This document shows, one piece after another, positions 43,501 through 49,500 of a stretch of DNA of 64,000 nt; the stretch's first letter is position 1, and every line of letters starts with the position of its first letter. The position numbers and the translations under genes are program-made. The DNA is from Octopus vulgaris (taxonomy: Eukaryota), in contig OX597833.1 of assembly GCA_951406725.2 (NCBI GenBank), positions 9,920,001 through 9,984,000 of the forward strand, in the 5' to 3' direction. The notes under the pieces are model-generated. The model saw nothing but the letters and a program-made list of their open reading frames with translations. It ran no database searches and was not told the DNA's origin.

Positions 43501-46500
43501 ATGCGAAACCATTGCTCACTCTATGACCAGATTTTAGTAATTTAATGCTTTACTGCTTTATTCTTTAGAGAATGCTTCTTATTCATATGTGTGTGTGTGA
43601 ACTGAATTCTTTGTTTCACAACTCGAGTGTTTGCCTTCCATGTATTTAAATTGAATCTGTTTTATTTATTTACTTTTAGCGATCTTTTTTCATTGGATGA
43701 TTTTTAATGTTGTTACATAAAGTTATTTTCCATGGTTGGCGTCATTTCCTTTATCAATTCGTTGATTGTTCTGTTTTTCGAGGGATTGTTTCCCATCTGT
43801 CTGCTTCGTCATTGTTTAACTATATAACGTTTTTCAGCTCCCTTTATCTTGAAGTTGGTTTTCAAACATTCCCCTTTTTTAATCTATTTGCATATCGTCT
43901 CCATTTTCTAATTCAGTAGACATTGTGTCTTTGTCTACCGCGTAAATTTGTCCGGTTTTGCTGAAATGCGCAATGATTTACCGGAGTTGTTCATTACTTT
44001 ATTCTCCGTTCATTTGTTGACTGAAAAGCTTCCATGTTTCAACTTCTTAATTACATCATTCATAGTTTGTTCTGCTAAAGTTTTTTTCTGCATATGAAAA
44101 CCGTGGGGTTTGGCCCTAATATCCGATGTCACTAAATTACCATTCTTTTCCACAGATTTATCTTGACACCGTAGATTAGTTATTTTTCTGTACTTTTAGT
44201 GTTGGAATTGTTTCTGATATTTTTCGTATACAAGATATTTATTGTTCGTAGTTTGACTAATTTTTTAAATGAATTTATTCTGGTGGTTGCAACGTGACAC
44301 CTTCTCATCTCGTTTATAGGAAAAATACATTTTTATGCAATTATGTTATACTTTTCTGCAGTGCAAAGAGGCATGTCCTAGAATAATTCATGCAAATGGT
44401 GACGCTTTCTGCTATTTGCCCAGTTTATATTTATATTAACCTTTCTTTTATGTTGCAAATATGATTCGATGCAGCCGCTATGTTTTTATCTGTACACATT
44501 GCGAAACAATGTGTTGTGTATACCTGCTTTTAAATGTTATGTTTCTTGCTCCGAAGTAATTTTTATCAATATATTACTTTTGCAATGTTATTGCTTTGTA
44601 TATTAGTTAATTTTTAGGCAATTTCTTCTTAATTGACACAGCTTCAGTCTGTTGCTGTTATATATGTTTTCGGCTATTCATTCAAATAAAAATCAGAATA
44701 CATATCGAAAATCACAGAGACAACATCAGAAAATAAAATCTCATATGGCTAAGATCACTCGTCACCTGAATCATAACAATAAATATGTCAAAAACTCCCA
44801 AACATTAATCACCAAACACTTCCCAACCGACCATAGATATCATAACAACGCAAAAGTTAGCAATAACTATACAAGAAACTAAAATATTACAACACAGGCC
44901 ATAAAAATACATCTACAAGATCACATCCCACAGCCCACAGCTATAACATATTTAACAGCAATGGTCAAAAATATGTCAGCTAAGAGGAAATTTACGAAAA
45001 TAACTAAATTATACAAAGTAAAAGTAGTATAAAATCTATTGGAGTGACTAAGCAGAATGCTCAAAACCATATACACACAACACACAATATTTGCAGAATA
45101 AATGCTACTCTGTCGAAGCATATTCAGAATTTAAGTGCGAATATAGTTATAAGTACAAAGTGCACAATAATACAATAATGGACGTTATAGAGAGAAAGTG
45201 AAAGGAAAGGAGGAAAGAGAGAGAGACGGAGGAAGACAGGCAGATAAGAGAATGAGAGAAGACTTGTCAAAGTGTGCGTTTTTTGCCCTAGTAACCACAC
45301 CTTTTAAGATTGGGATTTCTAACCAAGTCCACTCACATCCTCACCTCATTTTACATGTCTCTGTAAATTTTGGAGTCAATCCAACGGGATCTTGTGGCCT
45401 TTAACCCGTTCCAATGCCAAAACCAGACAAACAAACTTTTCGCATTTCAGATTATAATATAGAGATAATAATATATATATAAATATAATATATATATATA
45501 TATATATATATATATATATATATATATATATATATATATATATATATAATTATATTTATATACATACATACAAATATAATACGTATATTATTATGCATCA
45601 TTATTAATTATTATTATTACTATTATCTATTATATTATATTATTATTATTATTATTATTATTATTATTATTAATTATTATTATTATTATTATTATTATAA
45701 TTATTATTATTATATTATTATTATTATATATTATTATTATTATTATTATTATTACAGTTATTATCATTATTATTATTATTATTATTATTATTATTACATT
45801 ATTATTATTATTATTATTATTATTATACATCATCCATGATATATAATATATATACACTTATATACATTATACTTATATTTATAGTCACTAATCTATTATA
45901 TATGTACTTATTCAATTACTAACATGACCACCAGGTGACTAGTTCTATTCATATTAGTAGGTATAAGTTGTTTACCATGAACACATGTTTGGTTATTAGC
46001 GTTTATACATTATATCAATTACTATTCAAAGTTTATTACATTATTTTTAGACGGATATTTGTCCTCATCTTCTTTGTTGTTAACACAACGTTTCGGCTGA
46101 TATACCCTCCAAGCCTTCTTCAGGTGTCTTGGAGAAATTTTGAACCTGGGTTCTTATTCCTAAGATATTTTTCGATGTTGTTATTGTTGTTGTTATTATT
46201 ATTATTATTATTACTTTTTTTTTCTTCTTTCAAATTTGCTTCCATTTCTTGCCGAGTGTCTTCCCGACTCCTAGGGCAAAGAAACTCATAGTATACATTG
46301 GTAGGCCATTAAACCAAACTCAATAGTTCGTTCGTATTTTTTTTTTTTTTTTAAGTTAAATTAAAATACATGAGCAGCAACAGTTCTCACATCGACAATG
46401 CTCTTCTCAATACGTGTGATGTACCAGTTAAGACAATCTTTTGCACTTCTTGCAGGGATGGTAAGCCAGGGATCATTCTCATATAATTTTCGGTTCCCTT

Positions 46501-49500
46501 CTTGATCATTCCTAGTGCTCCTACGATCACTGGTATTGTAACCGCCTTGAGATGCCACATTTTCTCAATTTCAATGAGTAGGTCTTTATATTTTCTGAGC
46601 TTGTCAAACTCTTTCGCTGAGATATTATGATCACAGGGGATGCTCATGTCGATCAATAAGCAAACTTTATTGTTTTGGTCTTTCACAACAATATCTGGTT
46701 TATTGGCCTTGATGGTTCGGTCTGTATGTACTGGAAAGTCCCACAGAATGGTTACATTTTCTCCTTCAGTTACAGCCTCAAGGTGGTGATTATACCACTT
46801 GTCGGCAGTTTTGATATTGTAATGCCGACTTATTAGCCAGTGTAGATATTGGCCAACTCTGTCATGTCTTAATTTATACTCCACTGGAGCTAAGACTTTA
46901 CATCCAGAGATTAGGTGGTCCACTGTTTCAATCATGTCGTTGCAGAATCGGCATTTTGGGTCTGCTCCATTTTTCATCAATTTGGCCTGGTAGTTCCGGG
47001 TTAATAGGCTTTGATCTTGAGCAGCCAGGATGAAACCTTCGCTCTCTGCTTTTAGCCCTGAGCTCCTTAGCCACTGATGGGTTTGCTTCTGGTCAACATC
47101 AGCTTGTTTGCTGCGGGTCACATATTTGCCGTGCAGAGGTTTCTCCTCCCACCTATCAGCCAATTGCTCGTGCGCTTTTTTCGTTGCCATTATTTTCACC
47201 TTCTTTGCAACAATAATTGCCGTACTTCCCTCGGGTTGTTCTGTTTGGGTATCCTGCACGAGATCAATAGCAAATTTTTTGCTTTCCTTTATAATAGAAT
47301 GAAGCTTCTTTCGTCTCTCGTGATTTTCCACGAGCTTTAGCATCCAGTCATTCGATATTTCGAGATATTTGGCCAGTCCAATTGTGGTTGTTTTGTAAGC
47401 TAGTTCAAATTGGATCAGGCCTCGACCTCCTTGGGCTCTGGGAAGGTAAAGGCGATCTACGTCTGCCTTTGGGTGGTGCATCCTATTACAACTCAGCAGC
47501 TTGCGTATTTTCCTATCTACATTCTTTACTTCACTCATATTCCAGTTCAGCACATTGTAGCTATAAGTAACAACTGGAACTGCTAAGGAATTTATAGCTA
47601 ACACCTTGTTACGTGCTTTTAGTTCAGATTTCAGGACTGCACGAACTCTCCTATAACATTCCTTCCTGATCTTCTCTTTCATGCTTGCATGCTGAATACC
47701 AGAGCCTTCATTTATCCCTAAATATTTGTATGTTTGTTCTTGCTCAAGCTCTCTTATGACTGTGTCAACATCTAACACGACTGAATTTGTGGTCTTCACT
47801 TTCCCTTTCTGGAAAGTGGCCTTGGCACACTTCTCAAGTCCAAACTCCATCCCGATGTCATCGCTGAATGCTTTCACAGTGCACAATAGGCCTTCAAGTT
47901 CATTATTGCCTTTACCATAATTATTATTATTATTATTATTATTATTATTATTATTATTATTATTATTATTATTATTATTATTATTATTATTCAGGTCACT
48001 CCCTGCAATCGAACTCGGAATCTTGGAGTTAGTAGGCCGCGCGCTTAACCACTACGCAATATGCCCGTGGGTATATGGGATAATGGTTAAGAGCGCGGGA
48101 TACTAACCCCAAAATTCCGAGTTCGATTCCAGCCAGTGACCTGAATTATAATAATAATAATAATAATAATAATAATAATAATAATAATAATAATAATAAT
48201 AACATCGAAAAATACCTTAGGAATGAGTACTCAGGTTCGAAATTTCCCCAAGATACCTGAAGAAGGCTGGAGGGTATATCAGCCGGAACGTTGTCTTAAC
48301 AACAGACAAGATGAGAGCAAATATCCGTCAAATGTAAATAATGTACAAAATTCCTCATCTCTTAAATATAGAACTGTATCATGTATATATAAATATATAT
48401 ATATATATATATATATATATATACATACATACATACATATGCATACACACACACACGCATATATATATATACACATATATTCGTGTGTATATATATATAT
48501 ATTATATATATATATAAAGTATGTGGATGTGTGTATGTTTGTGTGTGTACACATAGACATAATCTGAAACGGTCGATATCCGGAGAAACTTCCAAGACAC
48601 TGAAACTAATTTTCCTTGTAAAAATAAGCAGCATGCTCTATCTTGATATATTGAGTGCTTCTTCTGCTTAAGTTTGATTGTTATTATGTATTATATATAT
48701 ATATATATATATATATATATATATATATATATATATATATATATGTACATATAAGAGGGATGACCACTACGTAGACATCCATTATGCTAGAAGTAGATTC
48801 GCTATGGGCTTACCACTAAGAAAGGAATGTTCTCAATAAAATTTACCAAACGCCAGAACGTAAGCGAGCAAGGCAAATGAAAAGAAACAAAATATAGATT
48901 AATAATAAATTAATTTCGCTATTAACACTTACGCAAAATTACTTACGTAATTATCCGTAGCTCTTCAGTATGATCGTCATTGCAAATGTAATTTGGAGAA
49001 CTATACACGAGATGTCTTCATGAGATTGAACATGTATACAGTGCTACCAATTACACTTGGGGTTATCTTTGAAAAGTCTTCGTTTTGGCGCTCTAAAATA
49101 TCGGAAATCTGCAGAAAGTACTTAACTTCTAGCATAATGGATGTGCACGTAGTGGTCATCCCCCTTATATGTATGCAATATAATTTTTCTGAATCTTCAG
49201 ATTTTAATATGCTAGACCACTGGTTTCAAATTGATATTAATCAAATTAATAATCAATTCTTCACCCATATTATTTTAAATTTAAATGTATATAATGTATG
49301 TATGTATATACATAAAACATACGCAACAAATAAATATATATTCACAGACTTACGTGCATAGATAAATACATGCAGATGTATGTATGTATGTACGTATGTA
49401 TGTAAATGGCGGGCTAATATCATCAAAATAGTAATAGTGCTAAATGAATGTTTTTGTTTGTTTTTTAATAATCTGCATTGAGTTAGTAAGATACCGCAGA

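Follow-up and report, generated by a model that had tools for sequence, protein, structure and literature searches.

Short interspersed nuclear elements (SINEs) are taught as parasites of long interspersed nuclear elements (LINEs). A palindromic locus of Octopus vulgaris, located at 46037-48378 of a 64,000-nucleotide (nt) stretch of DNA (GenBank assembly GCA_951406725.2, contig OX597833.1, positions 9,920,001 to 9,984,000, forward strand; hereafter the window, from whose first letter all coordinates are counted), raises the question of whether a SINE may depend on a different class of retroelement. Each arm of this palindrome joins a transfer RNA (tRNA)-like head, through an (AAT)n spacer, to a tail resembling the pseudo-long terminal repeat (pLTR) of Penelope-like elements (PLEs), within which lies a hammerhead ribozyme motif. 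Based on sequence comparisons, we consider it likely that the unit is a non-autonomous octopus SINE of ~310 nt, transcribed by RNA polymerase III (Pol III) and copied by Penelope machinery, comprising a tRNA-derived head, (AAT)n and a PLE pLTR end with a minimal hammerhead. That one of the most abundant octopus repeats (of the order of 10^4-10^5 copies) is in this way a true SINE partnered by a PLE is a proposal that we favour by a little over its negation.

Organization of the inverted element

On the plus strand the locus is read as a reverse tail, a TTA/TTG spacer, a LINE fragment, (TTA)n, a reverse head, a 2-nt centre, a head, (AAT)n and a tail, with the following features:

46037-46177, minus strand: left tail, pLTR-like; 87.5% identity to the right tail (BLAST), its end corresponding to 48345
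46082-46128, minus strand: left hammerhead, minimal type I with an intact core (core scan)
46178-46213, minus strand: tail-side part of the left (AAT/AAC)n spacer (from sequence)
46214-47919, minus strand: Dong/R4-like LINE, 5'-truncated, with an open 510-codon frame; a guest outside the element proper
47920-47989, minus strand: head-side part of the left (AAT)n spacer (from sequence)
47990-48066, minus strand: left tRNA-like head, with an A box at +8 and a B-box core at +53
48067-48068, no strand: palindrome centre, where two 5' ends abut (head comparison; recurs in XP_052825882.1)
48069-48145, plus strand: right tRNA-like head, with an A box at +8 and a B-box core at +53
48146-48202, plus strand: right (AAT)n spacer (from sequence)
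48203-48345, plus strand: right tail as far as the short 3' end (high-copy family in four runs)
48252-48297, plus strand: right hammerhead, minimal and mutated (core scan; family majority letters differ)
48346-48378, plus strand: Penelope-type 3' extension ("tail") of 33 nt, right arm only (loose ends at 48345 and 48376-48379)
31528-31585, minus strand: separate 5'-truncated copy of the family 3' end (long end)

A first-pass annotation of the window had described, with the LINE taken out, a palindrome of two outward-pointing heads, each leading through (AAT)n to a tail. This arrangement was recovered with boundaries agreeing to within a few bases, except at the left end, where homology stops at 46037 and not at 46031. 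The two tail arms align with a local score of 196 (maximum of 500 shuffles, 36), and the right arm continues for 33 nt beyond the left-arm homology, to about 48378. The third tail copy mentioned in that annotation was likewise found, comprising the 3' end only, with 96% identity over 49 nt (31528-31576). No target-site duplication is visible at the insertion.

Compared with the family majority across 48246-48345 (the variant table starts at 48246), the right arm has 7 differing positions and the left arm 4 substitutions and 2 indels; one minor allele is common to both arms, and the other changes are mostly private to one of them. The arms probably represent one old inverted insertion that has since decayed, and not two independent copies. 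Given the shared allele and the private changes, they offer no independent proof that head and tail travel together.

An abundant tail family with Penelope-type ends

Contigs aligned to 48176-48400 numbered 21,290, 18,545, 12,639 and 1,041 in the four runs, and the summed depth of the tail is ~1-1.6 x 10^5 times that of single-locus contigs. As depth is not a copy number and overlapping contigs inflate it, the family size of 10^4-10^5 is given as an order of magnitude only. At least half of the words of the region are present in 20 runs from 10 studies and four organisms, most of those words belonging to the LINE. An open frame in the tail (48223-48390) matches 52 short "proteins", which are translations of repeat copies; the best match is an Octopus bimaculoides UniRef entry, indicating that the family is octopod. 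The same frame was considered as the N-terminus of a PLE protein and rejected, since no match extends into a reverse transcriptase (RT), and it was used instead as a proxy for DNA copies. Exact-motif scans of metagenome and viral contigs gave 0 matches, 18 prokaryotic 17-mer matches were taken as chance, and none of the 89 stretches returned by a peptide-pattern scan of metagenomes was confirmed.

Two sites of termination were identified from the loose ends of aligned contigs, counted where these are long and of low agreement, i.e. unique flanks (best-supported rows, with 749 weaker rows besides). In runs X1, X3 and X5, respectively, 112, 139 and 137 contigs have loose ends at 48345, and 431, 546 and 492 at 48376, 48378 and 48379 together; those at 48345 open with one further unit of a 9-nt repeat, followed by flank. 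The family therefore possesses two 3' ends 31-34 nt apart. Reverse transcription by the Poseidon protein begins at two internal sites, which delimit a "tail" of 30-40 nt (Frangieh et al., PMC11167929); the main start in Anolis lies 111-118 nt downstream of where hammerhead helix II begins (PMC11167929). In the octopus family the long end lies at +112 to +115 from the helix II start and the short end at +81. Furthermore, the left arm stops at the short site and the right arm at the long site, corresponding to the inverted layout of PLEs, in which, according to the available text of Craig et al. (PMC8557442), an inverted copy at the 5' end carries the extension on one side only. Inverted pairs, recognized by an antisense tail piece ahead of a sense piece, occur in 8 of the 52 repeat-derived peptides, one of these being from this family.

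Together, the tail ends, the hammerhead distance, the one-sided extension and the minimal ribozyme anatomy bear out the earlier proposal of Penelope mobilisation, while no autonomous pLTR homologue was found among the 52 peptides or in the Craig et al. supplement. From sequence, Penelope-type mobilisation of the tail is well supported. An automatic count of long against short ends in the peptides (37 to 15) used a loose pattern and was not relied on. Peptides P0123-P0173 (ENA contigs) include sister hammerhead families whose 3' end is similar and which are arranged as direct tandems and inverted pairs; by a loose pattern, direct tandems are found in 10 of the 52 peptides, in sister families only.

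The same ends bear on whether the palindrome itself is mobile, as a fold-back or miniature inverted-repeat transposable element (MITE)-like DNA element, or arose through DNA-level inverted duplication of one SINE copy. The window contains several unrelated near-perfect palindromes, and the same centre is found at a second locus (below), both of which speak for such an origin. Against it, the ends are asymmetric, each falling on one of the two RT-type ends of the family, a lone 5'-truncated copy exists at 31528-31585, other inverted pairs join elsewhere, and the insertion is without a visible target duplication. We regard a DNA-level origin as very improbable; in place of the "fold-back element" first suggested, the palindrome is best read as an insertion product.

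Hammerhead motifs of the tail

Minimal type I hammerheads were recognized by CUGANGA and GAAA boxes, an extra base after A9, a G10.1-C11.1 pair, a helix I of 4-5 bp, palindromic positions 15.2-16.2 and an NUH site, features given for PLEs in the available text of Cervera and de la Pena (PMC4209133). A core scan located a hammerhead in each tail, as previously annotated, and revealed a defect in the right one that had gone unnoted. The left motif possesses both boxes, the extra base after A9, the G10.1-C11.1 pair, a short helix I and a palindromic, loopless helix III; its core is intact, and a single additional U is present in helix II or the helix II loop. Cleavage is predicted after GUU at 46089-46087, and helix III is possible only in a dimer. 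In the right motif, A13 is replaced by G at 48286 and the helix I pair 48254/48295 is broken, from which we predict an inactive ribozyme. Across the family, A at 48286 makes up >99% of depth, and each side of the helix I pair is restored in at least 92% of depth (three large runs). The left arm and the family majority letters thus conform to the minimal PLE type, and the right arm departs from it at A13. Outside CpG sites, the catalytic boxes vary at high frequency only at N7, which is a free position; T accounts there for 67-78% of depth (three large runs).

Covariation in helix II was inferred through the peptide proxy, which gave 46 motifs in 41 of the 52 peptides; among the 42 classifiable motifs the pair is C-G in 19, U-A in 8, U-G in 8 and C-A in 7 (Fisher p=0.19). 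Minimum-energy folds of the heads and ribozymes are no better than those of shuffles, as expected for a dimer-only motif. Given that inserted copies derive from uncut RNA, that the monomer lacks helix III and that the two ribozymes lie on opposite strands, precluding pairing between them in cis, the PLE recognition sequence most likely carries the hammerhead as a passenger.

tRNA-like heads and their linkage to the tail

Of the 77 positions of the heads, 47990-48066(-) and 48069-48145(+), 13 differ between the two (82.9% identity over 82 nt by BLAST); their alignment has a local score of 89, compared with a maximum of 26 among 500 shuffles. Both contain the A/B-box-like motifs described at first pass, the A box at 8 and the B-box core at 53, 45 nt apart, with 2 mismatches in the left head and 1 in the right. 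An unrelated tRNA SINE has the A box at this position and the 45-nt spacing as well, as four full-length copies in the window show. From known promoter geometry, head position 1 would correspond to tRNA +1, the expected Pol III start, and both arms extend 5' to this same nucleotide. Runs of four T are absent from the sense strand of the 310-nt right unit and of the left head and tail, which would permit Pol III to read through the unit. A second B-box-like motif is present inside the tail at 48234-48243, upstream of the hammerhead. Rfam microRNA matches in the region were dismissed, as they reflect the palindrome and microsatellites.

A second instance of the junction was identified in XP_052825882.1 (peptide P0146), the O. 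bimaculoides dystrobrevin beta isoform X1. Among 127,948 six-frame window positions, its first 9 residues best match the palindrome centre, with a score of 40; the next position scores 28, the best other peptide 33, and 0 of 2000 shuffles reach 40. The tail frame follows directly after these junction residues. Nothing in the window matches the dystrobrevin portion (E>=1.1), and the protein likely represents a different locus, the window exon at 31389-31511 encoding something else (long octopus introns being possible). Linkage of head and tail is supported by this one, probably independent, locus and by the geometry of the window locus. The element also supplies the first ~32 codons of this predicted dystrobrevin isoform, a possible case of exonisation.

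These observations have to be set against another account, in which the family is a headless pLTR fragment (an ordinary non-autonomous PLE or a monomeric retrozyme), the head is an independent, short tRNA SINE ending in (AAT)n, and the chimera is a minor sub-lineage copied by PLEs a few times. PLEs make up 6.83% of the O. vulgaris genome (PMC13282606, available text) and favour AT-rich and microsatellite targets (PMC8557442 and PMC11167929, available text), and peptide P0131 shows an inverted pair from this family, cut within the tail and lacking a head. Conversely, the junction is seen at a second locus, and a rare chimera would be unlikely to appear both in one 64-kb window and among 52 peptides. 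Depth near the 5' edge of the tail is also comparable in order of magnitude to that at the true 3' end, such that, edge effects aside, most copies seem to reach the spacer. We judge the separate-head account to be possible but rather unlikely.

A number of points weigh against a tRNA-headed SINE copied by PLEs. The two arms may record one event only, and the window contains a second hammerhead family, bounded by microsatellite and lacking a head, as the separate-head account would have it. The contig alignment skips the (AAT)n spacer, so that its scope excludes the upstream context of tails. A head is visible in 1 of the 52 peptides only, the frame having a stop before the spacer that leaves heads mostly invisible; ~190 nt between the head start and helix II are missing from the XP_052825882.1 model, by splicing or deletion, on protein evidence alone; and two protein searches with head-containing frames gave no match, a weak negative. 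With regard to an autonomous partner, 0 of the 52 peptides run into an RT frame (Pfam on 29 of the 52), and five tail motifs are absent from the Craig et al. supplement. As the Poseidon template must reach ~55 nt beyond the RT start (PMC11167929), ordinary copies may be unable to move again. CpG decay in the helix III palindrome affects 14-27% of family depth, suggesting that most genomic copies are not under selection. Rfam models matched neither feature: no hammerhead covariance-model match was obtained in the region, and no tRNA match to the heads at E<=10. Nor does ARAGORN recognize a tRNA in the heads at default score; it calls them at 70% of threshold only, which is noise level, with 26 calls in the window already at 80%. 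ESM Atlas gave no match, which is evidence neither way.

The Rfam and ARAGORN results would also accord with the head being the decayed 5' part of a Pol II-transcribed pLTR, its tRNA likeness incidental. Such a coincidence is scarcely credible, given that the A box at +8, the B box at +53 and their 45-nt spacing are common to the ordinary tRNA SINE in the window and that both arms begin at +1. Overall, the element is real, abundant and PLE-inserted, and probably a SINE with a Penelope partner.

Proposed mechanism of insertion

The features above suggest how such a SINE might be copied. Pol III would transcribe from the A and B boxes through the whole unit into the flank. A PLE RT-endonuclease, whose signature is observed at the ends, would bind the pLTR part, nick AT-rich DNA and initiate reverse transcription within the RNA, at either of two sites ~33 nt apart. 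Both target strands would be primed, each complementary DNA (cDNA) being copied to the RNA 5' end (tRNA +1), and the joining of the two cDNA ends would generate a head-to-head pair with the extension on one arm. The ribozyme would be carried along uncut, as intact copies suggest. A Dong/R4-like LINE later entered the left (TAA)n, an order of events visible in the structure. For the Poseidon protein, nicking and extension of both strands have been demonstrated, as has the dispensability of ribozyme cleavage (PMC11167929).

Comparison with known systems

The architecture had been annotated as one without a described counterpart, which holds in part. Hammerhead-bearing, tRNA-related SINE-like elements are known in Schistosoma as Sm-alpha and Sj-alpha (PMC6765202, PMC2770079); as these papers describe them in their available text, they are likewise high-copy and non-coding, possess a type I hammerhead and are apparently transcribed by Pol III, but they form head-to-tail tandems with a promoter at the 3' end of cleaved monomers, and their ribozyme has been shown to cut. 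The octopus element, in contrast, is a dispersed monomer or head-to-head pair with a 5' promoter-like head, a minimal dimer-only hammerhead and PLE-type double 3' ends, an end signature not described for Sm-alpha in the available text of PMC6765202 and PMC2770079.

With Penelope and Poseidon PLEs and their pLTR fragments the element shares the minimal hammerhead (bulge after A9, G10.1-C11.1, palindromic helix III; PMC4209133, available text), and also two 3' ends 30-40 nt apart, a 5' inverted copy, AT-rich targets and the hammerhead-to-end distance (PMC8557442 and PMC11167929, available text). It differs in having no RT or GIY-YIG frame, with a tRNA head and (AAT)n in place of the upstream part. 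Animal non-LTR retrozymes, proposed as non-autonomous PLE pLTR derivatives (PMC7229834; bioRxiv 10.64898/2026.07.22.740005), are similarly non-coding, with a type I hammerhead and a pLTR link; in the available text, however, they are defined by direct tandem units giving circular RNA, and a tRNA or Pol III head is not mentioned. Direct tandem units, each with a hammerhead, are not what the window holds, which is an inverted pair and a lone fragment. Classical tRNA SINEs and TRIMp3 elements (Helenus, Ajax, Cassandra; PMC10886601, available text) are also non-autonomous with a small-RNA-derived Pol III promoter, but their partners are LINEs or LTR elements, whereas the end signature of the octopus element points to a PLE. 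Where a classical tRNA SINE has a LINE-derived or simple-repeat 3' tail and a target-site duplication, the octopus element has PLE-type ends.

Short non-autonomous Penelopes have been noted in butterflies, without detail. A tRNA-headed, PLE-mobilised SINE was found nowhere in the literature searched, molluscs included; most subscription journals, Repbase, Dfam, the 1994 octopus SINE paper and the Zenodo library lay outside this search, and the family may be catalogued under another label.

If the proposal is correct, Pol III parasites would include, besides SINEs driven by LINEs and TRIMp3 driven by LTR elements, a third class, a short parasite of Penelope elements and not of the usual LINEs. 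The PLE-type ends of such a SINE would show Penelope proteins acting in trans on Pol III RNAs at large scale, and the SINE would supply a short natural cis-element with which to address the open question of template recognition and inverted insertion by PLEs. In full-length head-to-head pairs, priming of both strands by a dimeric PLE protein would be recorded directly. With a short RNA reverse-transcribed as far as its terminus, the centre junction would reveal how two cDNAs join, and thousands of copies would let this joining be measured. The family would also be a source of long double-stranded RNA and of new exons in octopus genes. It may account for some of the large share of octopus genomes labelled "unclassified SINE" or "Penelope", and it provides a way of testing whether PLE hammerheads contribute to mobility.

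The inserted LINE

The R4-like LINE previously annotated at 46214-47919 was confirmed as an unbroken 510-codon frame with (TAA)n on both sides. The frame contains an RT end, a CCHC knuckle and a PD..D motif, which we take to represent RT, CCHC and restriction-like endonuclease domains. It has 222 homologues at E<=1e-30, all 120 listed carrying RVT_1, matches a Pediculus RT at 43%, and has no sequence match in PDB. According to the available text of the respective papers, Dong elements target (TAA)n in molluscs (PMC7998251) and are abundant and recently active in O. vulgaris (PMC13282606). The fragment resembles Dong/R4 LINEs in its RT, restriction-like endonuclease and (TAA)n target, its clade being a tentative assignment from these features. 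By its sequence context it is a later, secondary insertion into the (TAA)n spacer, of the restriction-endonuclease type and Dong/R4-like. No match was found between the tail of the element and the 3' end of the LINE fragment. A further LINE RT fragment, in two frames, is present at 61114-62810(-).

Other features of the window

The second, unrelated minimal-hammerhead family consists of ~200-nt copies at 4008-4214, 15028-15237, 22917-23107, 33278-33486, 2710-2847 and 57507-57557. Most are bounded by (TA)n, several begin at the same 5' position, and none has a tRNA head; they probably represent another PLE pLTR fragment. A coding exon of a host gene, with clean AG/GT ends, is found at 31389-31511(+); it resembles an IP3-receptor-like protein, a likeness that Pfam and PDB did not confirm.

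Two further repeat families are tRNA-headed SINEs, ordinary and young; a third abundant repeat forms tandem arrays whose units measure 177-184 nt. Their copies fall into three groups:

1773-2154, 17361-17743 and 24153-24523
170-557, 8376-8754 and 18064-18455
4833-5311 and 6634-8281

Unrelated palindromes of 115-370 nt, possibly MITE-like, are located at 975-1102, 40477-40591, 41815-42041, 54777-54970 and 34111-34477; four of them are 90-99% perfect.

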